Virus record (IMG/VR): IMGVR_UViG_3300032050_000011
Direction: 5' to 3' (one strand)
Origin: a virus
Length of the DNA stretch: 64,000 bases
Shown here piece by piece: positions 1 through 44,129 of this stretch (positions are counted from its first letter, which is position 1; every line of letters starts with the position of its first letter). The translations under genes and the position numbers were made by a program. A model generated the notes under the pieces. The model was not told where the DNA came from, ran no database searches, and was given only the letters and a program-made list of their open reading frames with translations.

Positions 1-1910
1 TAAACGATACTATTAAACCCAGAAGTTGTGGCTTTTACTCCAGATACTACGTCTAGATTATCACTAAACGCTGTATCAAATACGCCTGATGTGCTTAATT
101 TAGCTATGCGATTAGCATTATTAGCGGTATTTTTAAATTGAGTGAATTGTCCGCCTACATATAGACTAGTTCCATCAATGGCTATTGCCCCAACATAATT
201 ATTAAAACCAGAAGTTGTGGCTTTTGTTCCAGACACTACATCTAGGTTGTTGCTAAAAGCTGTATCAAATACGCCTGATGTGCTTAATTTAGCTATGTAT
301 CTTGCGTTATTAGCAGTATTACCAAATTGAGTGAATTGTCCGCCTACATATAGGCTAGTTCCGTCAATGACTATTGTGAGAACCCTGCCATTAAATCCTA
401 TGCCTATATTATTTTGAAATGCAGTATCTAAGGTGCCGTTTGGTAAAATTTTACATATTGATTGAGTTCTAGTTCCGTTGTAAGTAACAGTTCCTATATA
501 GATATTACCATTAGCGTCTACGGCACATGAATCTGCATTACCGGATCCGTATTTATTTTGTATAAGATTTTGAAATACGCCAGAAGTGTTTAACTTTGCA
601 AAACCTAAGCACGCAGAATTTTTAAATGCAAGCATATCTCCACCTACATATAGGTCTGTTCCTTTTATAGCCACACATCTTACAGTGCAAGAACCAACAG
701 TTCCTGTTAGTGAAGTAGGGCTAAAACCAGAAGTTGTGGCTTTTACTCCAGACACTACATCTAGGTTATTGCTAAAAGCTGTATCAAATACGCCTGATGT
801 GCTTAATTTAGCTACACCTCTAGCGTTATTGGTAGCATTAAAGTCGTATATACGTCCACCTACATATAGGCTAGTTCCATCAATGACTATTGCATAGACA
901 TCGCCATTCCCAAAAGAGGAGCTGGTTACATTATTACCGAAAACCGTATCAAATACGCCTGATGTGCTTAATTTAGCTATCTTTCTAGCATTAGCAATAT
1001 TTTTAAATTGAGTAAACTCTCCGCCCACATATAGGCTAGTTACATCAATGGCTATTGTGTAAACCCTATTATTAAAACCAGAAGTTGTGGCTTTTGTTCC
1101 AGGTACTACATCTAGGTTGTCGCTAAATGCTGTATCAAATACGCCTGATGTGCTTAATTTAGCTATGCGATTAGCATTATTGGCAGTATTACCAAATTGA
1201 GTAAAACCTCCACCTACATATAGGCTAGTTACATCAATGGCTATTGTGTTAACAGCACTGTTAAAACCAGAAGTTGTGGCTTTTGTTCCAGGTACTACAT
1301 CTAGGTTGTCGCTAAATGCTGTATCAAATACGCCTGATGTGCTTAATTTAGCTATGCGATTAGCATTATTGGCAGTATTTTTAAATTGAGTGAATTGTCC
1401 GCCTACATATAGGCTAGTTACATCAATGGCTATTGTGTTAACAGCACTGTTAAAACCAGAAGTTGCAAATGATTTAGTTCCAGATACTAAATCTAGGTTG
1501 TCGCTAAACGCTGTATCAAATACACCTGATGTGCTTAATTTAGCTATATATTTGGCATTATTAGCAGTATTACCAAATTGAGTAAAACCTCCACCTACAT
1601 ATAGGCTAGTTCCGTCAGTAGCTATTGTATTAGTATTACCATTAAATCCTAAACCTGCGTTATTTTGAAATGTAGTGTCTATGCTACCATCCGCTAAAAA
1701 TTTGACAATATTACCACAATAATAATTAATACCGTTAGGATCAACGAAGCCGATAAATGAGCCAACAACAATAATTGAATCATCTGGTAAAATCAATATG
1801 TCTTGTATTTCTAGTGTAGGTCCGTATAGTCCCCTATATTCTGCATTTTGTAATTTGTTTAAAATGGTAGTTGTTCTTTTTTTTAAAAAAGAAAAAGGTT
1901 TGGACGACAT
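1..1910 (-). CDS. Delta-60/DUF5122-like repeat beta-propeller protein, probable fibre-tip adhesin (3' end runs off window; absent from ORF track)
   Basis: Manual translation from ATG 1910 (SD GGAGAG): MSSKPFSFLKKRTTT...IVKFLADGSIDTTFQNNAGLGFNG...TSLYVGGGFTQF...IAKLSTSGVFDTAF, repeated about every 62 aa; no stop seen before window edge. Confidence 0.85.
   Translation of the reverse strand, partial: MSSKPFSFLKKRTTTILNKLQNAEYRGLYGPTLEIQDILILPDDSIIVVGSFIGFVDPNGINYYCGNIVKFLADGSIDTTFQNNAGLGFNGNTNTIATDGTSLYVGGGFTQFGNTANNAKYIAKLSTSGVFDTAFSDNLDLVSGTKSFATSGFNSAVNTIAIDVTSLYVGGQFTQFKNTANNANRIAKLSTSGVFDTAFSDNLDVVPGTKATTSGFNSAVNTIAIDVTSLYVGGGFTQFGNTANNANRIAKLSTSGVFDTAFSDNLDVVPGTKATTSGFNNRVYTIAIDVTSLYVGGEFTQFKNIANARKIAKLSTSGVFDTVFGNNVTSSSFGNGDVYAIVIDGTSLYVGGRIYDFNATNNARGVAKLSTSGVFDTAFSNNLDVVSGVKATTSGFSPTSLTGTVGSCTVRCVAIKGTDLYVGGDMLAFKNSACLGFAKLNTSGVFQNLIQNKYGSGNADSCAVDANGNIYIGTVTYNGTRTQSICKILPNGTLDTAFQNNIGIGFNGRVLTIVIDGTSLYVGGQFTQFGNTANNARYIAKLSTSGVFDTAFSNNLDVVSGTKATTSGFNNYVGAIAIDGTSLYVGGQFTQFKNTANNANRIAKLSTSGVFDTAFSDNLDVVSGVKATTSGFNSIV
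10..1620. repeat. Intragenic ~186-bp tandem repeats (propeller blades)
   Basis: Block gctgtatcaaatacgcctgatgtgcttaatttagcta recurs at ~70, 259, 778, 945, 1129, 1318, 1510. Confidence 0.95.
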
Positions 1911-1924
1911 CTAGCTCTCCATAA

Positions 1925-4087
1925 TTAAACGTTAGAAAGACCAGTTACTGATGACAAATAAGTTTTACTATTTGCCCTAATAAAAGTATACACTGCAGCA
2001 GAATTTGCTGCAATTTGTAATGTGCCGGCTTCTTTGTATATACCAGAAGGAAAAGATACCGTAAGGGTCAAACCAGAAGTATTTGTTAAAATTATAGAGA
2101 TACACTTTCCTTCAACTAAATTAGAGAAAGTGAAAGTGGAACTTAGTGAGATGTCTCTATAGAATATCTCTGATAAACTCCAGTCAATGTCCAGGGCAGA
2201 AATTAAAGAAGCAGAGTAGGCTGATCCAACAACTAAATTACCTGATCCTAGTATAGAAGAACCATTTATGGTCTTTATGTTTGTCGCAGAAACGAGAGTG
2301 GCTTGCTTTTCCGTATTTAATTCATTAATTGCAGCTTGTACTGTTGTAGACGATATAGTACCAGAAGGTGTGTTAGTGACTGCTGTAGCGTTTAGCGTTT
2401 GAAAAGTTTTATCGCCGCGCCAATATTGAGAAGTCGTGCCAGCCGTTATGGTAGCTTGTTTTGTATCCAGTTGAGTCTGAATTGCTGAAGTTACCCCATT
2501 AAGATAATCAAATTCTGCATTTGATACTAGGCCTGAGCCAATTTTTGAAGCGTCTATTGTTACTGCTTGAACTGCAGTCGTAAAATCAGATATAGTAGAA
2601 GCTAGCTGCGCACCAGTATGAGTTGCCCTATCTCTTAGATTTGCTGCGCTTACATTATCTACATCTGATAAGCCTATATCTGACTTAGTTAATACTACGT
2701 CTCCAGTTTGTGTATTTACAGAGGTTACAGCTCCACCACCTCCACTAATAACTAGATCACCTGATCCTAGGATAGAAGATCCGTTTATAGTCTTTATGTT
2801 GGTCGCAGAAACTAGTAGGTCTTGTTTTAAAGCTAGCGCAGAGCTATCTGCCTTTAAATCTAGCGCTGTCTGGGTAGCTGTACTAACTGGCTTATCTGCA
2901 TCACTAGTATTATCTACATCTGATAAGCCTATATCTGACTTAGTTAATACTACGTCTCCAGTTTGTGTATTTACAGAGGTTACAGCCCCACCACCTCCAC
3001 TAATAACTAGATCACCTGATCCTAGGATAGAAGATCCGTTTATAGTCTTTATGTTGGTCGCAGAAACTAGTAGGTCTTGTTTTAAGGCTATATCTGATTC
3101 AAGCACGACTAACTCAGATTGAAGTGTAGCTAATCCTGGCACACTAGGCGAATCTGCGGTTCCGCTTAAATCACCGCTTAATTGTATGATACCTTTTGTA
3201 GTAGTTGTAGCGTCAGCCCCACCACCTCCACTAATAACTAGATCACCTGATCCTAGGATAGAAGATCCGTTTATAGTCTTTATGTTGGTCGCAGAAACTA
3301 GTAGGTCTTGTTTTTGAGATAGCTGAGAAACAGTGACTGCATCTTGTGCACTTGTACCGTTTATTAAGTTTGTTATTTTACCTAATGTCTGAAAGTTCAT
3401 TTCAGTATTAGTTAAAACACTACCCCTAGTTCCTGTAGCAGTACCTGTATATAATAGGATGTTGCCAGAGTTGCCAGCAGACGCGTTACCTGAAACAAGC
3501 TCAATAGGGCCAGTGCTTTGTGCGGCTCCAGTACGTACAATCGCAGCTCCAGAGCTTGAACCTCCGGTTCCAGATAGCAATCTAGCAGCTCCGGAAACTC
3601 CTCCAGTAGCAGGGCCAGAAAAAATATCCACCATTCCAGAGTTTCCACTTACTTGCGCGTCGCCTGAACCAACCTGTACTAGTCCAGAATTAGCTCCAGA
3701 TGTAAAACCTGAAGCAAGAACGACTCTTTTAGAAGCGGTTCCAGCAAAGGCTCCTAGTTGATCTCCTGATCCTGCATAGAATTGCTTTGGACTACCGTCT
3801 TCCATCACGACAGCAAGGTAATTAGGACCCCAAGAAGGAACTCCTATATTTAAGTCAAGAAATTCCGCTGCATTTCCTGAAACAGGATTTACGGTAAGTG
3901 TACCTGACATCGTATCGCCAGTCTTACTAACTTTATTGTCTAAGGCATCTTTGATAGGACCATTAGCTGCCAAACTGCTAACTTTTATCTTTTTTGTTTG
4001 TGTATTTGCTATGTCTACTACGGGCAGAATGTCATTTGCGCCGATAGATGTGGTCTCTGTTAGTTCACTTATTTTTACGTTAGCCAT
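1925..4087 (-). CDS. Tail fibre protein with repeated shaft modules
   Basis: N-term KISEL motif; Gly/Ser-rich segment; DATTTTKGIIQL; AVTSVNTQTGDVVL; 4x KQxxLVSATNIKTINGSSILGSG; C-terminal beta domain. Confidence 0.8.
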   Translation of the reverse strand: MANVKISELTETTSIGANDILPVVDIANTQTKKIKVSSLAANGPIKDALDNKVSKTGDTMSGTLTVNPVSGNAAEFLDLNIGVPSWGPNYLAVVMEDGSPKQFYAGSGDQLGAFAGTASKRVVLASGFTSGANSGLVQVGSGDAQVSGNSGMVDIFSGPATGGVSGAARLLSGTGGSSSGAAIVRTGAAQSTGPIELVSGNASAGNSGNILLYTGTATGTRGSVLTNTEMNFQTLGKITNLINGTSAQDAVTVSQLSQKQDLLVSATNIKTINGSSILGSGDLVISGGGGADATTTTKGIIQLSGDLSGTADSPSVPGLATLQSELVVLESDIALKQDLLVSATNIKTINGSSILGSGDLVISGGGGAVTSVNTQTGDVVLTKSDIGLSDVDNTSDADKPVSTATQTALDLKADSSALALKQDLLVSATNIKTINGSSILGSGDLVISGGGGAVTSVNTQTGDVVLTKSDIGLSDVDNVSAANLRDRATHTGAQLASTISDFTTAVQAVTIDASKIGSGLVSNAEFDYLNGVTSAIQTQLDTKQATITAGTTSQYWRGDKTFQTLNATAVTNTPSGTISSTTVQAAINELNTEKQATLVSATNIKTINGSSILGSGNLVVGSAYSASLISALDIDWSLSEIFYRDISLSSTFTFSNLVEGKCISIILTNTSGLTLTVSFPSGIYKEAGTLQIAANSAAVYTFIRANSKTYLSSVTGLSNV
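2655..3313. repeat. Near-identical internal duplications in fibre gene
   Basis: 2655-2830 ~ 2910-3085; the KQDLLVSATNIKT...GGGG block recurs at ~3220-3313. Confidence 0.9.
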
Positions 4088-4098
4088 GTTTCTCCTGT

Positions 4099-4121
4099 AA
4101 AGAAAGAGGTCCTAGGACCTC
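4099..4121 (-). terminator. Intrinsic terminator-like hairpin
   Basis: Minus strand GAGGTC-CTAG-GACCTC then TTTCTTT, just after stop of 4128..4319. Confidence 0.6.
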
Positions 4122-4127
4122 ATTCCC

Positions 4128-4319
4128 TTATAGTCTCTTTTTAATTTTCTTCTTCTTGACTACTTTTTCCGTGACATCATGCTCATCGCTTTCTGCATCA
4201 TCTCTTTGATTTTCATCATTAGTTTCTGCATCATCGACTGCTTTGGCGCCATTTTCTTTTTGCGTGCCATTTAACAACCTCTCTAGTAAATTAGACATAT
4301 TTAAAAACTTTATACTCAT
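4128..4319 (-). CDS. Small charged hypothetical protein
   Basis: ORF fills gap, co-oriented; acidic middle, basic tail. Confidence 0.55.
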   Translation of the reverse strand: MSIKFLNMSNLLERLLNGTQKENGAKAVDDAETNDENQRDDAESDEHDVTEKVVKKKKIKKRL

Positions 4320-4327
4320 AAGTTGCC

Positions 4328-4789
4328 CTATGACTCAAGGATAGCCTTGATTGCAACAAGGTCTGCGTCTAGCGGATATGCTGCGATTAGTAAATCGATA
4401 GCTTGTTCAGCTTTGCTCACCATATCAGCTACTTGCTTACCAAGTGACTTAGAAGCCATACCCTGACGACATACAGCTAGCAGTCCTTGCTTATGCTGAC
4501 CTACTAAAGACTTATCTTCAGCTTCGACACTGAGTGAGTCAGCTTCGATGATAGCATCGATAGTAGTAATAGCGTCTGCTAATCGCTTGCCAAAAGCTTT
4601 GTGCGAGACTGCAGCTCTGCATCTACCTAGCGCTTTCTTGTCTGAGTTTTCTACCATTTCATTCTGTGAGATAGTAGTGAGAACCATAGCTTCGATAGCT
4701 AAGATAGCAGTCGCCACCTCAGTTCCGGCTCTCTTGTGTTTGAGTGATGCTCTCATCACTCTTTCTAAACTTGCTTTATGTTGTGCCAT
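4328..4789 (-). CDS. Hypothetical helical protein with threefold internal repeat
   Basis: SD AAGGAG; ASLKHKRAGTEVA / AAVSHKAFGKRLA / QGMASKSLGKQVA. Confidence 0.75.
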   Translation of the reverse strand: MAQHKASLERVMRASLKHKRAGTEVATAILAIEAMVLTTISQNEMVENSDKKALGRCRAAVSHKAFGKRLADAITTIDAIIEADSLSVEAEDKSLVGQHKQGLLAVCRQGMASKSLGKQVADMVSKAEQAIDLLIAAYPLDADLVAIKAILES

Positions 4790-4857: not shown

Positions 4858-5670
4858 CTAGACTGGATAAATTTCAATTTTACTTATTTTAACACTATAA
4901 GAGCCATTCCAACTTAAAGCAGATATTGTTAAATCTTTATATGATCCAAAGCGTCCCATCGCTGGCATTAGTATTTCTGAAAATCCACCAGATAGAGTTG
5001 ATCCCCAATGTCCTCCTATAGGATGGCTGGCTCCGCCGTACGGGTTCAATATATCTATTCTAACATCATCTTGAAAAGAACCAGATAGCACTTCCATATA
5101 AACTCTAACAGTAAAACTTGCACTAGAGTTTATAGGCATCTCTGGGAATAGTGTGTTGAATTCTACAGAGCCACTTGCACTCGTAGATTGATTATAGACT
5201 AGGCTTACTCCATCTGGTAATTCTTGACCAGTTCCGGAAAGTGCAAATCCACTTAGTGTTGCATTATTGACTGGTGTAAAAATATGTTGCCAAAGATACG
5301 CAGCGCCTGGTGTCATATCAACATCGTAATCAGGATCAAACTCGGCTGCCGTTAATTCGCTTCTAATTACTTGAAAATAACCGCCATCAAAGTCTCTAAT
5401 GATTATTTTTTTCACTTTAAATATATCTCTAGCCTTATCAGAGACCAAGAAGTTAGTAGTTGGAGAGGCTAGCGCAGCATCAAATTTTAGTATTTCTTTT
5501 TGACCGTCAATTGTTGACTGGTAGTATATAAGCACTTCTTTCCAGTTGACGCTGTCTGAAAAGTAAAGGTCAGCTAGCACTGAAGTGACTGCTGCTAGTG
5601 CTGACTTATCTAAGGTAAAACTGGCCGATTGGGCTTTTTCTATCGTGGCTGGTTTAGTTATTATAGGCAT
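4858..5670 (-). CDS. Paralog array member A: conserved N-module + domain X
   Basis: MPIITKP...YFSDSVNWK...DFDGG...DVDM module; ends VKISKIEIYPV. Confidence 0.85.
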   Translation of the reverse strand: MPIITKPATIEKAQSASFTLDKSALAAVTSVLADLYFSDSVNWKEVLIYYQSTIDGQKEILKFDAALASPTTNFLVSDKARDIFKVKKIIIRDFDGGYFQVIRSELTAAEFDPDYDVDMTPGAAYLWQHIFTPVNNATLSGFALSGTGQELPDGVSLVYNQSTSASGSVEFNTLFPEMPINSSASFTVRVYMEVLSGSFQDDVRIDILNPYGGASHPIGGHWGSTLSGGFSEILMPAMGRFGSYKDLTISALSWNGSYSVKISKIEIYPV

Positions 5671-5679
5671 ACGCTATCC

Positions 5680-6483
5680 TTAAGCTTCAAAAATTTCTAT
5701 TTTTGTTATTTCAATTTGACCTGCACCCAGAGATAAGTTCTGAACTACAATTTTAAACCAATTTTGTGGAGCACTTTGTCCCCAAAAAAATCCGCTTTGG
5801 AAATTAAATTCCACGTAACCACCTGCATTTAATTGTAAGTCCTTATTTGCATCATACGCTCCATAGAAAAATGGAGGAATTTCAAAGATTACGTTTGTGC
5901 CGTACCCATATAGGCTCTGTAAGTATAGGATAGGAAATCCAGAGGTTTTATTTGCACTCTTTATGTATATTCTTGCTTTATAGTTAGAATACGGAGCAAA
6001 CACAGATTCTGTTACAAAAAGTTCTCCACTTTCTAGAAATTTAGCACTAGCGTTAGATAAAATCGGTGCTACACCAGATATAAGAGATACGTTAGCGGGT
6101 AAAACACCTTGAGTAAAATCTAGGGTTTGATAGGGAAGAGGTCCTCCCATATCAATATCAAATTCAGCTACTATTAGTTCGCCTCTAAGAATCGTAAACT
6201 TTCCGCCGTCAAAATCGTTAATGACTATTTTTTTTATCTCAAATACGTCTCTGGCTTTAGCTGACGCGTAGAAACTAGCTAGTGGACTAAGCTGAGCTGC
6301 GTCAAACTTAATTACTTTTCGCTGATTTCCTGGGTTACTTACAAAAACCATATCTACCGATTTCCAGTTATCTGAATCTTGAAAATATAGATTAGAAACT
6401 ATTGCAGCTAGAGCTGATTTATCTAGTTCAAATTCTGCTTTTTGACCTTTAGCAGGTGTTTGATTTTTAGTTAAAATAGGCAT
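5680..6483 (-). CDS. Paralog array member B: N-module + domain X
   Basis: Same N-module; ends IEITKIEIFEA. Confidence 0.85.
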   Translation of the reverse strand: MPILTKNQTPAKGQKAEFELDKSALAAIVSNLYFQDSDNWKSVDMVFVSNPGNQRKVIKFDAAQLSPLASFYASAKARDVFEIKKIVINDFDGGKFTILRGELIVAEFDIDMGGPLPYQTLDFTQGVLPANVSLISGVAPILSNASAKFLESGELFVTESVFAPYSNYKARIYIKSANKTSGFPILYLQSLYGYGTNVIFEIPPFFYGAYDANKDLQLNAGGYVEFNFQSGFFWGQSAPQNWFKIVVQNLSLGAGQIEITKIEIFEA

Positions 6484-9125
6484 ACATTATTCCTTATATT
6501 AAATTATAACACTTGAAGATATTAATGTTCCACCAGATGTAGCTAGTGATGCAATTGGTTTAATATTTGGAGCAGTGGCAACGGATGTGGTATAAATCAC
6601 ATCGCTATCGATATACATCGTTACAACTCCAGCTATTCTTGTAATTCTAAAAGCTTTATTGCTAGGATCACCCGCTGATGATACCCATATATTATTTATG
6701 TGAGGTCTAGAACCTCCACCACCCGCAACAATTCCACAAAAAGTAGGCGTGGATGTATTTGGACCGCTTTCAGAAGCATCAAAAAATCCAAATGCCGTGT
6801 CAGTTGGAAAGCTTCCAATATTGAAAGTTATATCAATATCTCCACCTGCTGTTGCAGTTTGAGTGTTAGAAAAAGCATTGTAATATGTGCTTCCACCTCT
6901 TCCGGCTCCATTTGTTAAACCGCCATCCGCTTCAGCATTATAGCTATTAGAAATTGGTTCCCATATAATAGCATTACCTGAAAGCGTAGTAGCTAAGCAG
7001 GTAACATCCGTACTGTTGGATCTGATAAATGGTTTATATGCATTTAGAGTGTATTGGATTGATTCTGTCCAAATAAGTGTTGAGTTATAATAGTATCTAT
7101 ATTGAGTGCTTGTTTGTTCTATTCTAAATGTTAAAGATGAACCTATACTTGAACTTAAAATTACTTGCTGATTGCTAGCTACATCAAATCTTACAATATT
7201 AGAATCTAGAATCAAAATATAGAATCTTGTATAGCTTGCTGGACCGCTATCCTCAGTAATCCCATCAACACCCTCAGTTAAACCAATTCTTATATTTTTA
7301 CCACTAGACATGTTCGATAGATTAAATGTTATGTCAAGTAGAGCAGCTCCACTACCTAATGAATTTTCATCTAATCCATAGGACATTGATTGTGAGGATG
7401 GAAGATTAATACTATTTCCGCTTCTTGTTACTCCAGTAGAAATAGTTTCAAAATAGAGTTCATTTAATGCAGGAGCCGCACTTGTATCAATATCAAACTC
7501 AGATGTAGTAAGCTGAGATCTAGGAATAGTAATACTACCTGCATCAAAATCTACGATTACAATTTTCTGAACTTCGAATATATCGAGAGCTTTATCAGAT
7601 ACTAAAAAGTCAGCTGTTGGAGAAGAAACTGTAGCGTTGAATTTTAAGATCTCTCTTTGATTCCCTGTACTAGATCTATAATAAATAAGTACTTCTTTCC
7701 AGTTATCGGAGTCTGAGAAGTAATCGTCAGCAACAACAGAAGATACAGCAGCTAAAGCTGCTTTGTCTAGCGAGATTTCTGCTGGGGAATTTTTATCTAT
7801 TGTGGAAGGCTTAGTTATTATAGGCATATGTTATTCCTTTTAGGTTATTAAACCTCTCCGCCAATTTGAATTTTTGTTATTCTTAAAAGCTTGCCCGGTG
7901 TAGGGGTATTCTGAAACCATATAGTAGGTAGGTAACTTGTTCCAATAGTATATCCACTGGCAAACTCTGTATCAAAATATCCATTTTGAATTTCAGTTAA
8001 AGTAAGCGTTCTACTTGAATAAGCAAATGATGACTGATTTCCATTTCCTGTTTTAAAATTCAATCCTACCTCAGCAGTTGTCGTATCAAAAAATACTCTT
8101 GCTGCTCTCATTTGAAAAGCAGGGGAACTTGGAGATTGTGGGTAGCTAAATTGATAAATGTAACTACCAAGTTGAAGTGCATTATCTATTATTGGGTTGC
8201 CATTAAATATCTCACCCCACCCAGAAGGTTCAGTTGTAGAGAAATCTCTCTGGATAAAGATATTTGGCAAGTCATTATCAATGACAGCAACAGCACTTGT
8301 TAATGTATGCTGGAAAGAACTTCTAAGGAATGGATAGGCATACGGTTTACTTGTGTTCGCTATTGTAATCGTATTAATAAGGTTGCCATCTTGATAAATC
8401 TTTAATTGGTTATCACCTTCTTGAAGGAGTCTTATAGATTTTGTTGTACCAGAAACACCCGTGCTTGAGGCATATCCTGCTGTTCCAATTGTAACAGTTC
8501 CCATGCTTGAATTTGTATCGACAACTAATCCATAAGTAGATGTTTCATAATTGGTAGAGACTTCACTCATACTTATACTGCCTGAATCAGAGTCAGAAAA
8601 TAAAATCCCAATCCATGTACCATATCCTGAGGTATTAGATAGATTATCAAGATTGAATGTTACATCGAAATTACCAACACCAGAAGATAATGCCCCTAGT
8701 GATTGATTACTTAGGGCAATTGAAATAGGAGTATAAATACTATTAAAAGTTCTGGTGAGAGTTGTAGGGTCAACAGAAGGTGAGAACGTTGGATAGTTCT
8801 GGAACAATTCAAACGTTACTGGATCTATAGTTGGTCCTCCCATATCAATATCAAATTCAGTTGTAGCATTTGGTATATCAACTCTAAGAATCGTAAACTT
8901 TCCGCCGTCAAAATCGTTAATCACTATTTTTTTTATCTCAAATATATTTTCAGCTTTAGCTGACGCATAGAAACTAGCTAGTGGACTAAGCTGAGCTGCG
9001 TCAAACTTAATTACTTTTCGCTGATTTCCTGGGTTACTTACAAAAACCATATCTACTGATTTCCAGTTATCTGAATCTTGAAAATATAGATTAGAAACTA
9101 TTGCAGCTAGAGCTGATTTGTCTAG
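6183..9125. repeat. ~244-bp near-identical direct repeat (6183-6426 and 8882-9125) in N-modules of members B and D
   Basis: Visual alignment shows only about ten mismatches. Confidence 0.9.
6499..7827 (-). CDS. Paralog array member C: N-module + two ConA/LamG-like domains (Y+Y)
   Basis: N-module; FRIEQTSTQYRYYYNSTLIWT and FRITRIAGVVTMYIDSDVIYT. Confidence 0.85.
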   Translation of the reverse strand: MPIITKPSTIDKNSPAEISLDKAALAAVSSVVADDYFSDSDNWKEVLIYYRSSTGNQREILKFNATVSSPTADFLVSDKALDIFEVQKIVIVDFDAGSITIPRSQLTTSEFDIDTSAAPALNELYFETISTGVTRSGNSINLPSSQSMSYGLDENSLGSGAALLDITFNLSNMSSGKNIRIGLTEGVDGITEDSGPASYTRFYILILDSNIVRFDVASNQQVILSSSIGSSLTFRIEQTSTQYRYYYNSTLIWTESIQYTLNAYKPFIRSNSTDVTCLATTLSGNAIIWEPISNSYNAEADGGLTNGAGRGGSTYYNAFSNTQTATAGGDIDITFNIGSFPTDTAFGFFDASESGPNTSTPTFCGIVAGGGGSRPHINNIWVSSAGDPSNKAFRITRIAGVVTMYIDSDVIYTTSVATAPNIKPIASLATSGGTLISSSVII

Positions 9126-9182
9126 AGATATTTCGGCAAGAGAATTTTTTTCAATACTAGCTGGTTTAGTTATAATTGGCAT
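7848..9182 (-). CDS. Paralog array member D: N-module + Y + X
   Basis: N-module; IRLLQEGDNQLKIYQDGNLI; FIQRDFS...LRITKIQI. Confidence 0.85.
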   Translation of the reverse strand: MPIITKPASIEKNSLAEISLDKSALAAIVSNLYFQDSDNWKSVDMVFVSNPGNQRKVIKFDAAQLSPLASFYASAKAENIFEIKKIVINDFDGGKFTILRVDIPNATTEFDIDMGGPTIDPVTFELFQNYPTFSPSVDPTTLTRTFNSIYTPISIALSNQSLGALSSGVGNFDVTFNLDNLSNTSGYGTWIGILFSDSDSGSISMSEVSTNYETSTYGLVVDTNSSMGTVTIGTAGYASSTGVSGTTKSIRLLQEGDNQLKIYQDGNLINTITIANTSKPYAYPFLRSSFQHTLTSAVAVIDNDLPNIFIQRDFSTTEPSGWGEIFNGNPIIDNALQLGSYIYQFSYPQSPSSPAFQMRAARVFFDTTTAEVGLNFKTGNGNQSSFAYSSRTLTLTEIQNGYFDTEFASGYTIGTSYLPTIWFQNTPTPGKLLRITKIQIGGEV

Positions 9183-9214
9183 TTAACACTCTCTCTTTTT
9201 ATAGTTCTATTTAA

Positions 9215-10534
9215 TTATACGTACGGTTTTATAAGTTCAATTTTAGAAATTGTAACCAAACCCCCGTCATTTGGATTTTCGGCATCATCATAGGATGCTA
9301 TACGGTTCTGTTGGGGAAAGCTTAAGTTTGGATCACTCGCACTCATAATTTTTTCAATAAATCCTTGTTGAACTTCTTGACTAGTTATCGTATGTACATC
9401 TAGCGAAGGTCCATCTTTTAGCCATATTGTATTTCCAACACTCCCGGTAACTAAGTGAAGTCTATATTTAATAGCAGTGTATGGAATATTAAAATCATCG
9501 GGATTTGGAAATATTGCAGCATAATATAAAGGAGTGCTTTCTGGAGTAGTACTGTTTAATATTAAGTTGCCACCACTTATAGTTCCTCCAAATTCATACC
9601 ATCCTTGAGTGGAGTATACACCCCCAACAGGAGGTGGATTTTCGTGGGGTTGAGAAAAGTCTCTGGTATATATTAAATTCGCAGGAGGAGGTGCAGACGC
9701 AGTAAAGAAAGATTTTGTTATTGTTCCCCCCAACCTAGTTTCAGGATACAGAGTCGAGTTAACACTCGGAGTAAAACTAGCTATTTGATTATTATTTATG
9801 TAAAAACTCAATACACCGCTCACTCTTTTAACTTTAAAAGTATTTATCCCTGAAAGAATAGAGCTGCTAAGATTTGAAGCTAAAACTTGTCCTTCAGCAT
9901 AAATACGGAATTCAGGGGTTGGATTTGGATTAATAACGTCATTATAAAATATGTATTGATTTTCTCCGCTTTCTGGATCTTGAAGAGACTTGGACACCCC
10001 TGCTTGCCAGTATGGCCCTATATCTGTATTTAATGCTTCAAATGTTATTTCAAAATCATCATTAAATCCTTGAGTTGATCTTGGCATCAAGTTAGTTAAT
10101 TCTCCTGTTCTAGATATTCCGCCTTCAGATCCTAATGTATAACCACTAGTGTAAATATTCCAATCTACATAGTTAACAGAACCTGAACTCATATCAACTT
10201 CAAATTCTGAACTATTTAACTCGGAGGCATTGACAACCGTAGATCCACCATCAAAATCTTGAATAATAATTTTTTGTACTTGGAATATGTCTCTTGCCTT
10301 ATCTGAAACTAGAAAACTAGCAGTTGGCGATGACAAAGTTGCATCAAATCGCAATAATTCTTTTTGGTTACCAATGCTTGATTTATAATAAATTGTAACA
10401 TTTTTCCAGTTAGTTTGAATTGAAAAATACGGATCATTTAGAACACTGGTAATTTGCGCTAAATCTGATTTATTTAATGTAAAAATAGCAGGAGAATTTT
10501 TTTCAATGGTCGATGGTTTAGTTATTATGGGCAT
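9215..10534 (-). CDS. Paralog array member E: N-module + Y + X
   Basis: N-module; FKVKRVSGVLSFYINNNQI; IYTRDFS...VTISKIEL. Confidence 0.85.
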   Translation of the reverse strand: MPIITKPSTIEKNSPAIFTLNKSDLAQITSVLNDPYFSIQTNWKNVTIYYKSSIGNQKELLRFDATLSSPTASFLVSDKARDIFQVQKIIIQDFDGGSTVVNASELNSSEFEVDMSSGSVNYVDWNIYTSGYTLGSEGGISRTGELTNLMPRSTQGFNDDFEITFEALNTDIGPYWQAGVSKSLQDPESGENQYIFYNDVINPNPTPEFRIYAEGQVLASNLSSSILSGINTFKVKRVSGVLSFYINNNQIASFTPSVNSTLYPETRLGGTITKSFFTASAPPPANLIYTRDFSQPHENPPPVGGVYSTQGWYEFGGTISGGNLILNSTTPESTPLYYAAIFPNPDDFNIPYTAIKYRLHLVTGSVGNTIWLKDGPSLDVHTITSQEVQQGFIEKIMSASDPNLSFPQQNRIASYDDAENPNDGGLVTISKIELIKPYV

Positions 10535-10537: not shown

Positions 10538-10903
10538 CTATCCTTTTAATAAACTTATTAATCCGTATAATGCTCCAGCGATAGCTGATATCCAACCAGC
10601 CCACACAGCTATAGTAGTTAGAGTACGAGCGGGAACCTCTAGATTCTCTATCCGCTTCTCATTGTCTTTATGCAGTTGTTCTAGTAGCTCTGTGCGACGT
10701 ATATGGTCTGCAAGCTGCTGATTCTGAATTTCATCTAGAGATTCTATCTTAGACAAGCGCTCACTTGTCTCTATCTCTATCTTTGTTAGCTTTTCTTGTA
10801 GTTTTGAATTAGCCTCTCTAACTTCTTTTCTGAACTCAGCTGACTCTTCTTTTTCTTCTTTAATTATATCATAGATAAGATCTATTTTATCGCTCACACA
10901 CAT
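10538..10903 (-). CDS. Coiled-coil protein with C-terminal transmembrane helix (XhlA/holin-like)
   Basis: Heptad-rich body; TIAVWAGWISAIAGALYGLISLL. Confidence 0.65.
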   Translation of the reverse strand: MCVSDKIDLIYDIIKEEKEESAEFRKEVREANSKLQEKLTKIEIETSERLSKIESLDEIQNQQLADHIRRTELLEQLHKDNEKRIENLEVPARTLTTIAVWAGWISAIAGALYGLISLLKG

Positions 10904-10966: not shown

Positions 10967-11158
10967 ATGAGGTTAGATATGCAAGACAAGATAGTCTCTA
11001 GAATAGAAGATATATCTAATAAAATCAGCAGTCTTCTGGCTGATAGAGAGAGATGCTTACGCGAGTTAAATTCAATAAGTCTAGAGATAGATAAGCATTC
11101 TGCTATAATATTTGAACTAAAGTCTCTACTAGATTCAGCCGAGCCTAAATTAGACTAG
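10967..11158 (+). CDS. Small coiled-coil protein, divergently transcribed
   Basis: GTATAAT at 10949-10955 upstream; fills gap between minus-strand genes. Confidence 0.6.
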   Translation: MRLDMQDKIVSRIEDISNKISSLLADRERCLRELNSISLEIDKHSAIIFELKSLLDSAEPKLD

Positions 11159-13254
11159 TAGATCTCTCTCCACTGCAATCCGCACACAACCTGAGCTTGA
11201 ACGTTATTTCCAGGTTCTACAGTACTAACTAATATGACGTAAACCTCTGAATCTGTGCTATCTATATTCTGAGATATTATGTTTTTCTTTGCCGAAGTAA
11301 GTGTACCTGACACAGCCGCAGCAAGACTGTTCTGGCTTGAACCAGAGGATACAAAACCCGTTGCAAAACGATCTGCGTCTGCACTCACAAAATCAGTAGC
11401 GTTGACGCAGTATTCTACGCCGCTAGACATATCTGCAGGTGTCCAGACAAGCACCCCGGCATTTAAAGTGGTAGATAGACTAGATACGGAAGATAGTTTA
11501 ACTACTTCGTACATTACACTTTCGCCTGTGCAATATATTGACAGCTGATTAGGCCTGACGCTTAAACGATTAGGATACCCGTTAAATGAGTTTTTTAATC
11601 TTATTGCCATAAGTGGAAGCCTAGTCTGACCTATGGCTGGAGTTGTTCTCTTGGGACTTGTTACTGCAAAATCAATGCCACTCTCGACATAACCACCTTC
11701 GCTAGCAACAGTAGAACAGATCTGATCCATGGATCCGCCAGTGGTTATTCCGGTATTGAATATCTCACATCTTACTGGCAGATTTGGGTTGCTTATATAG
11801 ACTTCAGGTAGCACGTTTGAATGATAATACTCATGAGCAATTACGAATGCGCCATCGTGCACAAATCCACATCTGACTCTACCTACTCCAAGCCATTGAA
11901 AGTCCATCCAGGCTAGCTGCGTTTTTGAAGTATCTAGATTAAAACCGGACGCACCAGTGCCATCGCACTTATCTATGTTCCATTGACTCTGAGGAACCCT
12001 TCTTATATACGAGCCAACAGCTGCCTCTGACGCAGTTCCACTAGTGTAACTTCTTATTACCCAGTTAAGTTGACCATTGCTTGTGCCATCAGCATCGTTG
12101 TTCCCGACTTGTTCAAAATATATGCCATCACGATCGTCATAGTAGCCAGTTCTCTTTGTGACATTTTTTTGTGCATACCCAAGGCAAGAAGACGTTAAGA
12201 TCAACTGACTTTTACCTGGCTGATAGTGATGATACATTTTTGTCTGATGCACTGCACTAGATAATGTATTGCTAGTGGTAGATAATGTAGCACAAGCCTT
12301 ATCTTGATTATAGGTTACGCTACCGCCATTTAATTTTCTATCAAGAAAATTTGGATCAATCGCATAAACATGTTTATAGTCACCTAGTGTAAACGGCTCG
12401 CTCATGCGAGTTCTTCCAAACGCATCAGGGTTAATTCCTGGAAGGGTGCCCGTTATAGTAGCGCTTACATTACCATTAACTGTCCACGGATTAGTGCCTT
12501 GATTAGCAGTTACTGTGCCATTTACTGGAACTGGGTTGCCACTATCGTTCTTAATCTCTAGCTCAACCGATGAAACTATGGCAACATTCTGCGTCGCCGG
12601 AAAATTTCCTATGTTTACAGTTCCATCTACCGTAAGTGATCCACCATTATCGGTCACATTTATTGAGCCATCTGAGTTGATTTCTAGTGTATGAGTGCCG
12701 TCACCTATGCGTACAGAATCGTGAACGTCACCGACATCGGGTACATTGTCTTGATGCGATAGCTGAACCTCTAGCTCAGCATTAACGGTTCCTATTGATA
12801 TGGATCCGTCTGATAGCTCAACAGGAACAGGGTTGGACTTGCTATAGCTTCTACCAAGCCAGTCAACTGCATGAGTACGCATTGCAACTGTTGGCTCTTC
12901 TTCATATGTTTGTCGCTGTATCTCTAGCAATTCTATTACAGGGCGCTTGTCTTGGGCTAACTCCACCGTAGCAGTGTCAGCTGTCAATAGATCAGACATG
13001 TCTAGCTTGTTTAGTGTTGCAACTGAATCTTTAGGATCTATCACTATGAACTGACTAGTTGATATTACACGCTTTACTTTAGCCAGTCTTATAGCTACAG
13101 AAGATGACTTAAACTTAAGTGTTTGGCCAACTTTAATTCTATATGTAGATGCTACTGTTATGGTGCCATCTGAACTACCATTTGCTGTCAGCAGCATTGG
13201 TGCGAGTGCTAGATAGCGCTTTTCCGTAATATGCGGTAGTCCAAAATCTGCCAC
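11155..13254 (-). CDS. Virion structural / fibre-like protein
   Basis: VTDNGGSLTVDGTV and PVNGTVTANQGT shaft motifs; DAFGRTRMSEP...YQPGK...FQWLGVGRVRCG C-terminal domain common in phage structural genes. Confidence 0.7.
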   Translation of the reverse strand: MADFGLPHITEKRYLALAPMLLTANGSSDGTITVASTYRIKVGQTLKFKSSSVAIRLAKVKRVISTSQFIVIDPKDSVATLNKLDMSDLLTADTATVELAQDKRPVIELLEIQRQTYEEEPTVAMRTHAVDWLGRSYSKSNPVPVELSDGSISIGTVNAELEVQLSHQDNVPDVGDVHDSVRIGDGTHTLEINSDGSINVTDNGGSLTVDGTVNIGNFPATQNVAIVSSVELEIKNDSGNPVPVNGTVTANQGTNPWTVNGNVSATITGTLPGINPDAFGRTRMSEPFTLGDYKHVYAIDPNFLDRKLNGGSVTYNQDKACATLSTTSNTLSSAVHQTKMYHHYQPGKSQLILTSSCLGYAQKNVTKRTGYYDDRDGIYFEQVGNNDADGTSNGQLNWVIRSYTSGTASEAAVGSYIRRVPQSQWNIDKCDGTGASGFNLDTSKTQLAWMDFQWLGVGRVRCGFVHDGAFVIAHEYYHSNVLPEVYISNPNLPVRCEIFNTGITTGGSMDQICSTVASEGGYVESGIDFAVTSPKRTTPAIGQTRLPLMAIRLKNSFNGYPNRLSVRPNQLSIYCTGESVMYEVVKLSSVSSLSTTLNAGVLVWTPADMSSGVEYCVNATDFVSADADRFATGFVSSGSSQNSLAAAVSGTLTSAKKNIISQNIDSTDSEVYVILVSTVEPGNNVQAQVVCGLQWREIY

Positions 13255-40074: not shown

Positions 40075-43000
40075 CTATTTTATTATTTCTATTTCTTTGA
40101 GATTTATACTGACAGATTCTTTGAACCCTTCTTTTAGAGTTCCTCTAATGTAGACTACACTATTTTCTGGATAGCGAAGTGGCTTAGTCTTATTCCAGTC
40201 TATACACTCAACATGTGAGTAGCCATCCGATAACACGACATTAAGCATACAGTATTCTTTGCCGCTTTTCTTTGAAATGCCTTTTTTTATATGTGAACCT
40301 TCATAAAGCATAATCATACCTATATCTTTCTTGTGATCTTTCAATATAAGACCTTCGGCTATCTTTATGTTATTTATAATAGGTATGGGATTATTATCTT
40401 TATCATGAATTATAAATGGCGCACCTTTTTTGCCAGTGTCTACAAGAGCTGGCCATTTTGTCTTTAAGAAATTTCTAACATCCGGATCAGAGAGTAGGTG
40501 TTTATTAAATGTAGTGTTAGATTCTTTTTCCATAAAATATATAGAAAGCGGATTAGTGTCTTTTAGTTCTGGCTTCCAGGCCACTTTGCCTCCACGCAGA
40601 TTGTTATATCTACTTAATAAATCAAGTCTTTTATCTGCATACGACAGTAATTCTTTATTCATAAGAGAATCTGCCGCTCTGGCTTTTATAAGAGCCTCAA
40701 CAACTCCCTTATTTACTTTGCTATGATCTACACGCTTGACGTAGTCTTCTAAGTCAATAAACGGACCTTTACTAACTAGTTCTTTTACTGCAGATGGACC
40801 AACGCCTTTGATTGCAGACATTGGAGCAACTATGTAATTATCTTCAACCTTAAATTGCTGAGAAGGATTTTTCATAGACGGTGGCTTAATAGTGTCACCC
40901 AAAAGGGAAATAAAGCCGCGCACTTTATCTTCTTTGTCTTCATTGTTTAATACAGATGTCCACCACTCTAGAGGATGGTTGTGCTTGAGATACATGGTGA
41001 TATAGCCAAGTTCTGCATAGCAATGTGAGTGAGATCTATTAAATGAATAGCGCGAAAAAGCCTGAATAGTACTACATAGCGTATCTGACTGATGCTTATT
41101 CCAGCCTCTTTTGTGTGTTGCTGATCTAATTCTGTCAAACGCTGCCATCATAACATCTTGCTTTTTCTTAGAAATCGCATCACGTATGCGATCAGTTTCT
41201 TCAAGTGTATAACCGCATATGTCTACAAGTACCTTCATCACCTGCTCTTGATATACCATGATGCCATAGGTTTCTTCTAATATAGGTTTTAGATCCGAGT
41301 GTATGTATGTTGGCTCTCGCTTGCCCATCCTTACATCCATGTACCACTGAGTAGCAGAAACTCCATCCTCTAGTATTGCATCCATTGCACCTGGTCTAAG
41401 AAGAGCTGTCATAATGCTTAGATGCTCTCGTTTAGTAGGCAAGAACTGCGGTGCAGCATTTTTAACGGTATTAGTGTTAAATTGAAAAGATGAATCTGTT
41501 TTCTTATTGTAAAAATCAACGTAGACACCTTCTAATTCAGGCAATCTATATATTAGGGCAACACCATTACTATCTGTCTCTAGGTAATTTATATTATCTT
41601 TTAGCATGTTAACACAATCAGTTACCATGGCCATAGTATTTAGACCAAGAATATCTGCTTTTACAAGATTGCTTTTCTCTACCATCTTGGCGTTGTATTG
41701 TGTAACATTTATGTAGTCTTCCATGCCGTTATCATACATGCGCATAGTTGGAACTCTGCCATCCTGCAGATTTAGTGTAGATATAGCAAATGCAGAAGCA
41801 TGTCTTGACCAGCCTCGCACTACGCCAAGTAATTTATCTACCAGCTGCCTAACGTCCGGATACGAGCTAAAGAAGTTGCGAAGCATTTCGTTTTCATCAT
41901 AGTGACCAATATGTTCATCGCCCTCTTTATCTGTGTATCCGTATAGAAAATCCTTCTCCTCAACACCCTGTGGCGAATCTGGGATTGTCTTGCATACAGC
42001 TTCTATCTCGAAGTCTTTACGATTTCGGCCGTATATAGCCATCATAGCGTCTTTGATAGCATTTTTAGTTTTCATAGTAGAGAACGTAGATATCTGAGCA
42101 AAACCTAAACCATATTTATCTTTAAGATATTTCATAACACGTGGTCTAGCTGTACGAGATATATCCATATCAATATCTGGCCAAGATCCGGCTCTAATAC
42201 GAGCATGAGACAGAAAGCGCTCAAAAGGCAGATCACTTTTAACTGGATCCACGTGAATTATTTGCAGATAATAAGATATTAGACAGCCACCTGCAGAACC
42301 GCGACCTATAGACTGCAAGAAACCTACATCTCTTGAAAATTGGGAAACATCTTCGTACACTAAGAAATAGGGTATGAAATTCATTACCTCATTTCGCATT
42401 ATAACATCTAATTCTTTCTTAAAGCGCTGTATATATATAGGATCATTTACCCAGCGACCATGCTTGTTTATGCGCTCCATCATTACATAGTATGTCTGCA
42501 TATTGTAATCATCAGTTTTAGCCTTAATATGATCAGGCACCTCAATCTGAGGCAAGTGGTAGTCTAGCGATATATTGACCTCAGAAGCAAGACGTGTTAT
42601 ATCAAGTGTGTGACCAACCCATTCTCTGAATATATCTTCAGATAATTCATCTCCAAGATGTACACTTAGCTCGCGATATACTTGCTCTGTTTTCTTTATG
42701 TGATATGACTCATAATAATATGCTTGATTCTTGTGGGCGTTCTTAGATAAACAGTCTTGAACTAGCTTATCCTCTTGATCTATGAAGCATGCACCAGTTA
42801 CAGGTATGCATCTGGCTTTATATTTCTTATAAAGATATAGTAGAAATTGATTGTAGGCTTTACTTAAATTGCCCTCTAATACAAGAGGATTTTTTGGTAT
42901 GCTTCTAAAGCCAACCTTGCCATCATAAATTTTAGTTATGTCAATAGGATTTAGTTCTAGTGTTATGTCTAGTTTATCTTTAAGATCTATGTATCGTTTT

Positions 43001-44055
43001 TCAGCAAGATCTTTGTCGCCTGCAGCTATAGCGTGACCAAGTGGGCCTCTAAGATCTGCAGCACCAAAAACTAAGCCCTCTCGATACTCTACAATAGTAT
43101 CTAGTGATACTACCGGAGTTGATATGCCGTTTACGTCTCTAGCATTATCAAATCCTAGGGACGCTAAGCGGACTAGATTTTTATAGCCTTGATTAGATAT
43201 AGCCCAAGCATTTAATGAATATACACTTTCAGTTCGTGTATCAGGTTCATAAGTAAAGTTTATTCCCAGACCTGACACTGCTACGGTTTTTTCTTTGTTT
43301 CTTATAGAATTAAATAATGATATTCCCGAGCCCTGATCTACAATTGAAATGCCTGGTATGTTATTTTCTGCTGCCCACTTATACCAGTCCTCTGGAACAA
43401 GCACTCCGTCGATCATGTTATATTGAGAATGAACATGCAGCTGTGCCATCTCATCAAAGGCTGATTGAATTACTATATCTTTTGCATTTAGCGAAGGTAT
43501 ATAGACGGTTGTATCTTCATCCATTAGACCAGACACTATCTTATCTAATTTAATAGTGGCAGATATATCCGATAACGCGTCGTGAGCGTTTATCTCTATG
43601 TTGTAGAGATTGGCTAAAGCTTCTAGCTTAAGAGATTTAGAAGCAATTTTGTGTTTAACGTCCGATGCCCTCTTGTAAACGCAATGTATGTCTATTGAAA
43701 ATAGTTTAGAAAATTCTTGATTTTTATTCAGCTTAGAAAAAGATGAAGACAAAAAACGTCTATCGAAAGATACGTTAAATCCGGCGATAGTAAACTTAAG
43801 ATTAAAGCTAGATATGTACTCTATAAATTTAGAAAACATATCTTCTGATGATTGAAATGTCTTAAGCATGTCTCTAGAGATACCATGAATATTAAGTGCT
43901 TCTTGCTCGACAGTTTCCCAATTTAGTGGCTGGCAAAATTCATTAAATGGTTTCTGGGGTACATTGTTGATGATGGGTATACAGGCTAATTGTATGATGT
44001 CGTTTTTTTTCTCATTAAGACCTGTAGTCTCAACGTCGATCCATAGATAATTCAT
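40075..44055 (-). CDS. dnaE: DNA polymerase III alpha fused to N-terminal DnaQ-type 3'-5' exonuclease
   Basis: IDVETTG, GFNVSFD, HDALSD; PHP LHVHSQY; GRGSAGG, PDIDMD, KADILGL, YQEQVM, YSFNRSH; start MNYLWID with SD AAGGAG. Confidence 0.93.
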   Translation of the reverse strand: MNYLWIDVETTGLNEKKNDIIQLACIPIINNVPQKPFNEFCQPLNWETVEQEALNIHGISRDMLKTFQSSEDMFSKFIEYISSFNLKFTIAGFNVSFDRRFLSSSFSKLNKNQEFSKLFSIDIHCVYKRASDVKHKIASKSLKLEALANLYNIEINAHDALSDISATIKLDKIVSGLMDEDTTVYIPSLNAKDIVIQSAFDEMAQLHVHSQYNMIDGVLVPEDWYKWAAENNIPGISIVDQGSGISLFNSIRNKEKTVAVSGLGINFTYEPDTRTESVYSLNAWAISNQGYKNLVRLASLGFDNARDVNGISTPVVSLDTIVEYREGLVFGAADLRGPLGHAIAAGDKDLAEKRYIDLKDKLDITLELNPIDITKIYDGKVGFRSIPKNPLVLEGNLSKAYNQFLLYLYKKYKARCIPVTGACFIDQEDKLVQDCLSKNAHKNQAYYYESYHIKKTEQVYRELSVHLGDELSEDIFREWVGHTLDITRLASEVNISLDYHLPQIEVPDHIKAKTDDYNMQTYYVMMERINKHGRWVNDPIYIQRFKKELDVIMRNEVMNFIPYFLVYEDVSQFSRDVGFLQSIGRGSAGGCLISYYLQIIHVDPVKSDLPFERFLSHARIRAGSWPDIDMDISRTARPRVMKYLKDKYGLGFAQISTFSTMKTKNAIKDAMMAIYGRNRKDFEIEAVCKTIPDSPQGVEEKDFLYGYTDKEGDEHIGHYDENEMLRNFFSSYPDVRQLVDKLLGVVRGWSRHASAFAISTLNLQDGRVPTMRMYDNGMEDYINVTQYNAKMVEKSNLVKADILGLNTMAMVTDCVNMLKDNINYLETDSNGVALIYRLPELEGVYVDFYNKKTDSSFQFNTNTVKNAAPQFLPTKREHLSIMTALLRPGAMDAILEDGVSATQWYMDVRMGKREPTYIHSDLKPILEETYGIMVYQEQVMKVLVDICGYTLEETDRIRDAISKKKQDVMMAAFDRIRSATHKRGWNKHQSDTLCSTIQAFSRYSFNRSHSHCYAELGYITMYLKHNHPLEWWTSVLNNEDKEDKVRGFISLLGDTIKPPSMKNPSQQFKVEDNYIVAPMSAIKGVGPSAVKELVSKGPFIDLEDYVKRVDHSKVNKGVVEALIKARAADSLMNKELLSYADKRLDLLSRYNNLRGGKVAWKPELKDTNPLSIYFMEKESNTTFNKHLLSDPDVRNFLKTKWPALVDTGKKGAPFIIHDKDNNPIPIINNIKIAEGLILKDHKKDIGMIMLYEGSHIKKGISKKSGKEYCMLNVVLSDGYSHVECIDWNKTKPLRYPENSVVYIRGTLKEGFKESVSINLKEIEIIK

Positions 44056-44067
44056 AAGCTCCTTAGG

Positions 44068-44129
44068 CCTCAAAAAATAATGAGGGGATTGAGGAATATT
44101 CCTGCGATATTTATACACATCGCAGGAAT
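44068..44129 (-). promoter_or_regulatory. Structured element upstream of dnaE
   Basis: 11-bp inverted repeat 44098-44108/44119-44129 enclosing GTATAAAT; second stem CCTCA/TGAGG next to SD. Confidence 0.55.

Follow-up and report, generated by a model that had tools for sequence, protein, structure and literature searches.

Five tandem genes share an N-terminal module

Five consecutive open reading frames (ORFs) lie on the minus strand at 4858-10534 of the 64,000-nucleotide (nt) stretch of uncultured-phage DNA IMGVR_UViG_3300032050_000011, which we call the window throughout, and the ORF listing places them just 9-32 nt apart. All five encoded proteins start with MPI[IL]TK and none has a signal peptide. 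In each of them an N-terminal module (N-module) is joined through a short junction, ...EFDIDM, to one or two cargo domains of two kinds, X and Y.

In the order of transcription, gene 1 (9215-10534; 439 amino acids (aa), P0001) has the architecture N-Y-X, with N at aa 1-116 (10187-10534), Y at aa 117-283 (9686-10186) and X at aa 284-439 (9215-9685). Gene 2 (7848-9182; 444 aa, P0002) is also N-Y-X, with N at 8835-9182, Y at aa 117-300 (8283-8834) and X at aa 301-444 (7848-8282). Gene 3 (6499-7827; 442 aa, P0003) is N-Y-Y, its N-module at 7480-7827 being followed by Y1 at aa 117-283 (6979-7479) and Y2 at aa 284-442 (6499-6978). The last two genes are shorter and both N-X: gene 4 (5680-6483; 267 aa, P0004) with N at aa 1-113 (6145-6483) and X at 5680-6144, and gene 5 (4858-5670; 270 aa, P0005) with N at aa 1-120 (5311-5670) and X at 4858-5310.

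The alignment of the N-module (residues 1 to ~116) across the five proteins has 39 invariant columns and a mean column identity of 71%, and each copy matches the N profile with an E-value of 1e-43 to 1e-53, far beyond chance. The pairwise identity of the C-terminal parts is 20-28% at best. The first-pass annotation of this DNA had described a module common to five tandem genes and followed by highly divergent domains in the architectures X, X, YY, YX and YX; each part of that description holds, the architectures being those given above read by coordinate.

The cargo was sorted with iterative hidden Markov models (HMMs) built over 153 family members. All four Y segments (P0001, P0002 and the two of P0003) fell into one large domain family. 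The X domains of P0001 and P0002 formed one group, that of P0004 belonged to a second group with nine other proteins, and that of P0005 had a near-identical protein as its sole partner. A combined X profile nevertheless recognised 4 of 4 X domains (E 1e-34 to 1.6e-17), so that X is a looser class than Y, and the motif I[ST]KI[EQ][IL] was found again at the ends of many X domains across the family. A word-based homologue search with the P0001 cargo gave just one 99%-identical copy. When promoters and terminators were scanned for, the counts were not above those of shuffled sequences; the single intergenic terminator-like hairpin (4106-4121, minus strand) comes after the block.

The N-module defines an unnamed family

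A search of 1.84 billion representative proteins with the N profile gave 882 matching clusters at E <= 1e-3, of which 203 remain at E <= 1e-30. The 150 best clusters listed include just two exceptions to a start of the module at residue 1, by their look an N-terminal extension and a truncation. Member lengths span 114-1118 aa and are most often 250-300 aa; the 1118-aa member (P0148) sits on a 3.8-kb contig. In a census of 148 representatives we counted 8 N-only, 40 N-Y, 20 N-X and 9 N-Y-Y proteins, with up to four Y domains in a protein, and 55 representatives carry cargo outside the Y and X profiles. The cargo of the long relatives, searched against curated libraries, includes He_PIG immunoglobulin (Ig) domains (10 of 37), DUF5122, FG-GAP and RCC1 propellers, and Laminin_G_3 (1 of 37). 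In their source annotations the family members are 'hypothetical protein' throughout, save one RCC1 label.

The five array proteins gave no Pfam match at E <= 1 and no PHROG or NCBIfam match at E <= 0.01. One sub-threshold DUF2846 match was all that these three libraries returned, and the N-terminal region matched no curated phage tail or fibre anchor family in them, such as the T7 gp17 N-terminus, T4 gp10-like or BppU_N. Against PDB sequences both the N profile (best E 3.9, a beta-1,3-glucanase) and the N+Y profile (E 0.88, frutalin) stayed at chance level, and a megablast search with the entire array found no match. Among 185,579 bacterial and archaeal genomes there was one match, a 2.5-kb contig (L006, CAYOWH010000177.1) binned into a Bacteriovoracaceae metagenome-assembled genome; as it carries a fibre end and an N-Y-Y gene, it is probably a phage fragment and not a clue to the host. 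The first-pass annotation did not recognise the anchor as a named family; the N-module is, as far as these searches reach, a large phage protein family absent from Pfam, PHROGs, NCBIfam, PDB sequences and the deposited phage genomes that were searched (see Discussion). A literature search for a described equivalent returned general work on the modularity of receptor-binding proteins only. The principle of a shared anchor with a variable binder is known; what is undescribed in the searched resources is this family, its cargo-less forms and its expandable arrays.

Array size and domain order vary among relatives

A 163.8-kb contig (L111) is syntenic with the window, with 13 flanking proteins 36-91% identical, and at the site of the window's five genes it holds a single N-only gene of 117 aa. 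In a close relative (L099), fibre and propeller genes are followed by three N genes (N-only, N-Y, N-only), and these precede a minus-strand gene 78% identical to its counterpart in L111; this order suggests that past coordinate 1 there may be more N genes in the window's phage. Four tandem genes (N-?, N-Y, N-YYYY, N-X) were found in L093, two N genes in each of L087, L091, L094 and L112, one N-only gene plus one N-Ig-Y gene in L001, and N-only, N with a 12-blade propeller and N-only in a complete 157-kb relative (L007; IMGVR_UViG_3300043449_002191). Variability of the arrays among relatives, which the first-pass annotation had made a condition of its proposal, was thus borne out by the N-module HMM search and the comparison of loci, with arrays ranging from one cargo-less gene to five genes. 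Cargo-less proteins occur in several lineages, in one case alone at a syntenic site, suggesting that the N-module has a role beyond plugging cargo.

The interval from a 120-aa gene to a conserved minus-strand 264-aa gene (window 1-4319, L099, L111) appears to be a hypervariable 'adhesin island'. In L111 it contains an N-only gene, a 153-aa gene and a 59-aa gene only; compared with L111, the window is richer by four N genes, one fibre and one propeller, and L099 has a fibre, a propeller and three N genes.

Domain shuffling, which had been postulated as the source of this diversity, is directly visible. A 757-aa protein of L093 is 90% identical to P0003 in the N-module and 85% in the Y-Y pair, and relative to P0003 it has gained two Y domains, placed precisely where N meets Y. 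Another member, P0016, is 62% identical to P0002 and ends after Y, thus being N-Y only without the X domain. Within the array itself, genes 2 and 4, which are not adjacent, share a tract in the N-module (8873-9126 in gene 2 and its partner 6174-6427 in gene 4, both minus strand): nt 57-310 (254 nt) are 93.7% identical, nt 57-231 are 97.1% identical, and the longest exact run is 89 nt. The first 56 nt of the same two genes are 52% identical, and all other pairs of array genes are 53-65% identical over the same stretch. To judge from these nucleotide identities, the shared tract is a recent conversion or recombination inside the N-module.

Exchange is also suggested by two propeller proteins of the window that have no N-module, a DUF5122 beta-propeller protein at 3-1910 (minus strand; >636 aa, with its C-terminus outside the window) and an FG-GAP beta-propeller protein at 62574-63863 (minus strand; 429 aa). 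Their N-fused counterparts were found elsewhere, the FG-GAP type in L089 (51% identical over 162 aa) and the DUF5122 type in L007. The same propellers are therefore free in the window and fused to N in other loci, implying that cargo moves between different anchors.

Predicted folds of the N, Y and X modules

In AlphaFold2 models, the predicted local distance difference test score (pLDDT) of the N-module was >90 in both P0001 and P0004. The Y domain of P0001 reached ~88 and its X domain 30-60, which is low; the X domain of P0004 was at 60-80 with one loop <50.

The N-module superposes on the N-terminal barrel of Cwp6 with a Z of 10.8 and a root-mean-square deviation (rmsd) of 2.5 over 99 residues. 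This seven-stranded barrel of the C. difficile protein has been described as a Runt-like, Ig-type fold without known role (PMC5842191). The assignment uses this one strong match and two-domain matches from the full-protein models, and on this basis the N-module models as an Ig/Runt-like beta-sandwich of ~115 aa.

The Y domain superposes on the PRYSPRY domains of TRIM25 and TRIM14 (Z 14.7; rmsd 2.7-2.8 over 143-146 residues, being 2.7 over 143 for TRIM25), and also on CBM66, GH16, galectins and the thrombospondin LamG domain (Z 11-13), with Foldseek E-values down to 3.7e-5. It models as a curved two-sheet beta-sandwich of ~160-180 aa, as expected of a concanavalin A (ConA)-like fold; curated sequence models lend it no support, with no Pfam match (SPRY, Laminin_G_3 etc.) in the five proteins at E <= 1. 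The X domain, taken from residues 113-267 of the P0004 model, superposes on the carbohydrate-binding modules (CBMs) CBM61, CBM16, CBM22, CBM6 and CBM35 and on MAM domains (Z 9-10.8; rmsd 2.5-3.5 over 110-130 residues), and models as a beta-jelly-roll of ~130-150 aa of the CBM or galactose-binding-like type, at moderate model confidence. The models thus make Y a SPRY/ConA-like sandwich and X a CBM-type jelly roll, both of them lectin/CBM-type beta-sandwiches; the guess from the letters that these domains are lectin-like agrees with structure prediction (Z 14.7 for Y, ~10 for X). A finding that X and Y are not beta-sandwiches would have spoken against the first-pass proposal, and the models gave no such result. 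By their predicted folds, X and Y are candidate carbohydrate-binding domains.

Predicted head-to-tail contact between N-modules

When three copies of the N-module were folded together, the co-fold score was 0.67 (0.72, 0.28 and 0.67 in the individual runs) versus 0.05 for the best of three controls; the pLDDT of the partners was >=91 and the contacts agreed between runs by >=96%. When the method was calibrated, with two copies and their own alignments and not with three, 20 of 30 solved pairs and 1 of 23 single chains attained this mark.

The predicted contact is head-to-tail, with face A (residues 36, 41-42, 93-99) of one module on face B (52, 54-59, 76-77, 79-81) of another. One copy uses A only, one B only and one both, suggesting an open chain and not a closed trimer; such a chain would close only with more than three subunits, or never. 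The interface residues Y36, N42, D93, D95, G96/G97, S52, G55, Q57, S77 and A80 make up most of the conserved polar or small residues, and all five paralogues retain the predicted contact residues, so that they could co-assemble or compete for the same positions. The models thus support a head-to-tail binding of the N-module to itself. Because the N-module is predicted to bind itself and also exists without cargo, it may be a self-assembling structural element and not a mere plug.

Likeness to a mycobacteriophage baseplate protein

Residues 10-279 of the P0001 model align to residues 13-309 of 8zdo_a (VIA Z 11.4, 231/311 residues; Foldseek E 1.3e-4). This chain (PDB 8ZDO chain a) is BppU, gp23 of mycobacteriophage Douge, which consists of a ring domain (1-100), a flexible linker and a CBM (116-311) (PMC13033339). 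In the Douge baseplate, the distal tail protein is surrounded by twelve copies of the ring domain, and mycobacterial glycans are bound by the ring domain and the CBM alike (PMC13033339). The two-domain superposition has an rmsd of 20 A because the domain orientation differs between the P0001 model and gp23.

The two systems are alike in several respects. Both have an N-terminal beta domain of ~100 aa, a short linker and a C-terminal ConA/CBM-like domain in a protein of similar size; the Douge gene is the last tail gene before the lysins, and the N genes of L001-L004 likewise hold the last position before the lysis genes; and the self-assembly of the BppU ring may have its counterpart in the head-to-tail contact predicted here. 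They differ in that Douge has one gene, whereas here there are up to five paralogues, cargo-less forms and cargo up to 12-bladed propellers, and in that the N-module family occurs in large contractile-tail phages (L007 has a sheath gene beside its N genes) and also in small ones. By analogy, the array may work like BppU, but we do not file it as a member of that family.

The gene logic of a shared N-terminal attachment region with a variable C-terminal part is also that of multi-tailspike and branched systems, for example CBA120 TSP1-4, G7C gp63.1/gp66 and Klebsiella phage PhiK64-1, in which tandem genes share an N-terminal attachment region and differ in C-terminal recognition, and modules are swapped horizontally at the junction. 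Those proteins are long trimeric beta-helix enzymes with gp10-like, XD or T7 gp17-like N-termini. The array proteins, in contrast, are small and non-fibrous, have no beta-helix or coiled-coil shaft and no enzyme domain, and carry an unrelated anchor.

Genomic neighbourhood of the N genes

Nearly all genes of the window are on the minus strand. Only 3 nt upstream of the array, at 10538-10903 (minus strand), lies a gene for a coiled-coil protein of 121 aa that has a membrane helix at its C-terminus and no family match, and directly downstream, at 4328-4789 (minus strand), one for a 153-aa helical-repeat protein. Both have counterparts flanking the N gene of L111 (72% identical for the membrane-anchored coiled-coil protein and 80% for the 153-aa protein), and this pair around the N gene or genes forms a conserved cassette without family matches. 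Farther upstream is a 699-aa virion structural protein (phrog_1645; 11155-13254, minus strand), which served as a synteny marker. Counterparts of the C-terminal 420 aa of this protein occur in a protein of the T4-like cyanophage S-RIM32, at 70% identity, and in one of the podovirus HMO-2011, at 32%; this part is a structural domain common to very different aquatic phages.

On the other side, in the same variable block, a 720-aa tail-fibre-like protein with repeats (1925-4087, minus strand) has PHROG tail fibre and minor tail matches and shares repeats with fibres adjoining N genes in 15 loci. It contains four near-identical copies of a segment (…LVSATNIKTINGSSILGSGDLVISGGGG…), and pieces of the repeat recur in fibres of many unrelated loci. 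The window array is thus found between a virion structural gene and fibre/propeller genes, with no endolysin nearby; N genes adjoin fibre and propeller genes in L099 as well. The complete 157-kb relative has its three N genes between a sheath gene (phrog_279, E 9e-17) and a 158-aa gene, whose PDB matches are weak (E 0.3-0.6), all three being tail tube proteins. N genes adjoin capsid genes in 0 of ~25 loci. The gene context therefore favours the tail or fibre region over the capsid, and it makes display of the array proteins on the virion probable.

The opposite placement would be on the head. The N-module could bind a repeated head site in the style of T5 pb10, T4 Hoc/Soc or lambda gpD and form a mixed lectin coat, with the paralogues competing for capsid sites and the cargo-less form serving as a plain cement or decoration protein. 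The array does share a late block with the portal, protease and major capsid genes, the last of which is ~12 kb upstream of it; the stand-alone form of ~115 aa has a size typical of decoration proteins; neighbouring fibres also match a PHROG labelled 'head decoration' (phrog_2647); and the predicted self-association suits a lattice as well as a ring. We nevertheless consider capsid decoration unlikely: none of the ~25 loci has capsid genes next to N genes, which instead are at the fibre cluster's distal end, after the sheath gene or by propeller and fibre genes; in the stretches compared, no related capsid protein could be detected among phages with the N-module in common; and the best two-domain structural analogue is a baseplate protein.

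Accessory display of Ig or lectin domains on virions, with weak multivalent glycan binding, is familiar from T4 Hoc and T5 pb10, the latter having an N-terminal anchor and a displayed C-terminal domain. The 'evolved' Dit and Tal proteins of lactic-acid-bacteria phages carry CBM insertions as decorations of the phage particle (PMC7533335, PMC9692632). The array resembles all of these as an accessory, seemingly non-essential lectin or Ig display; it has no sequence or profile relation to them, and they are single genes or insertions into core proteins, not paralogue arrays with an autonomous anchor.

In 11 loci an N gene starts <=60 nt after the gene of a coiled-coil fibre that ends in one conserved C-terminal domain of ~85 aa. 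This fibre-end domain (alignment A12; 9691-9945 of L004 and ten further loci) is beta-rich, contains …VGRLNVFKNVDYT…GDKIFVTY and seems undescribed. One interpretation of this arrangement is that the N-modules are fibre-tip adhesins of the T2 gp38 type, capping the C-terminal domain of the upstream fibre, with the paralogues as alternative tips; several N genes follow one fibre in L001, L087, L090 and L112. The small tip adhesin gp38 of T2, T6 and S16 is encoded right after the long fibre gene and has a conserved N-terminal attachment part and a variable recognition part. The likeness ends with the gene position, since the fold is unrelated (there is no glycine-rich-motif sandwich) and a fibre partner is not universal for N genes. 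Neither the 64-kb window nor the complete 157-kb relative, which keeps three N genes, has the fibre domain, and the fibre of G003 is 25 kb away from the N genes. Moreover, cargo-less N proteins would be pointless as caps, and the predicted N-N contact would be superfluous. The fibre-tip interpretation is accordingly quite improbable; the ~85-aa domain was also considered as a universal dock for the N-module, and was rejected as it is missing from the window and the complete relative G001.

The N genes of L001-L004 are next to lysis genes, and in the window and L111 a gene for a membrane-anchored coiled-coil protein is alongside. This position would suit proteins that act off the virion, as soluble lectin or SPRY-like late factors that mask receptors on debris or bind host or defence proteins in the cell. 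SPRY domains are classic protein-binding modules, and a BLAST comparison of the window with small phages found no conserved virion partner. On the other hand, cargo of these types (He_PIG Ig, CBM-like, ConA-like and large propellers) is what phages mount on their baseplates and fibres, no signal peptides are present, fibre/tail clusters consistently enclose the genes, and the same propeller types are encoded by neighbouring genes of the structural block in the window. Of the explanations considered, we hold a non-virion role to be the least probable.

Some genes apart from the N genes also deserve mention. L001 (8-2194) and L004 (5043-6842) encode, within the structural module, proteins of 599-728 aa with a signal-peptide-like hydrophobic N-terminus, which is unusual for a virion block. 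The window also encodes, at 40075-44118 (minus strand), a 1347-aa DnaE-type (Pol III alpha-like) polymerase whose N-terminal region is like an exonuclease subunit; its nearest phage relatives are just ~27% identical.

Discussion

The interpretation that we favour, at somewhat better than even odds in our judgement, is that the array encodes phage adhesins carried on the virion, where self-associating N-modules form a collar or row, probably on the tail or fibre apparatus, that bears lectin-like heads. In this mechanism, N-modules would contact each other head-to-tail via polar loops, Y36/N42/D93-F-D-G-G97 against S52/G55-N-Q57/S77-x-K-A-R81, and so would build a multi-subunit collar or row in the way that the BppU ring of Douge circles the distal tail protein. 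One particle would then show several different lectin-like heads, which may give wider or stronger reversible binding to host surface glycans. The conserved DNA of the N-module would provide homology for recombination, by which cargo may be swapped, added or deleted and the array may grow or contract. The anatomy, the folds as predicted models, the size of the family, the variation of the arrays and the recombination tracts are observed; the place on the virion, the ring or collar geometry, the mixed assembly of paralogues and the glycan binding are inferred. The first-pass annotation had pictured interchangeable binding modules at a common docking site; this notion is better widened to a self-associating structural module, probably on the tail.

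A more specific form of this idea seems to us possible but rather doubtful. The N-module may polymerise into a mixed tail collar in which cargo-less copies are 'spacers', and the combinatorial display would be re-dealt by recombination; no conserved docking partner would be needed, which would fit the occurrence of the module in unrelated morphotypes.

Several observations weigh against the adhesin-collar interpretation. The likeness to Douge gp23 is at the level of fold only, the hhalign probability being 0.1-0.2% (alignments A6 and A8, with a single-sequence template). The N-N co-fold is a matter of model confidence, with one of the three runs at just 0.28, and ring size is not derivable from it. 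The contact positions take in 8 of the conserved polar or small residues, at 3.08 versus 2.69 bits; because the entire N-module is well conserved, this enrichment is marginal (permutation p = 0.05). The X domain of P0001 was modelled poorly; its low confidence is explained by a thin alignment, since MAFFT had put X fragments onto N/Y in the composite alignment A5 (discarded) and X was modelled with hardly any alignment. The ligands of SPRY-type domains are often proteins, not sugars. In the all-against-all BLAST of the window versus small phages, no partner protein linked the ~34-kb phages to the window or to the ~160-kb phages with the same module; what they had in common was limited to N proteins and short fibre repeats. 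The window and the complete relative also lack the fibre C-terminal domain often encoded just ahead of N genes. Finally, tblastn of three different N-modules against 50,697 deposited phage genomes gave no match, even at E 0.1; as far as these genomes tell, no cultured phage carries the N-module.

A conserved attachment part combined with an exchangeable host-binding part is textbook phage biology. Naming the N-module family would annotate many 'hypothetical' phage genes, in at least 882 metagenome protein clusters, as candidate adhesins, and the family would flag host-range islands in uncultured phages. It also offers a compact model of how an adhesin repertoire evolves, with cargo-less forms, growth of the array at one syntenic site from a single gene to five, and visible conversion tracts and insertions. 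If the collar reading is true, the N-module would be a small autonomous scaffold that already displays Ig domains, lectins and 900-residue propellers, and it would be of practical interest for phage display engineering or for retargeting in laboratory phage-host systems.

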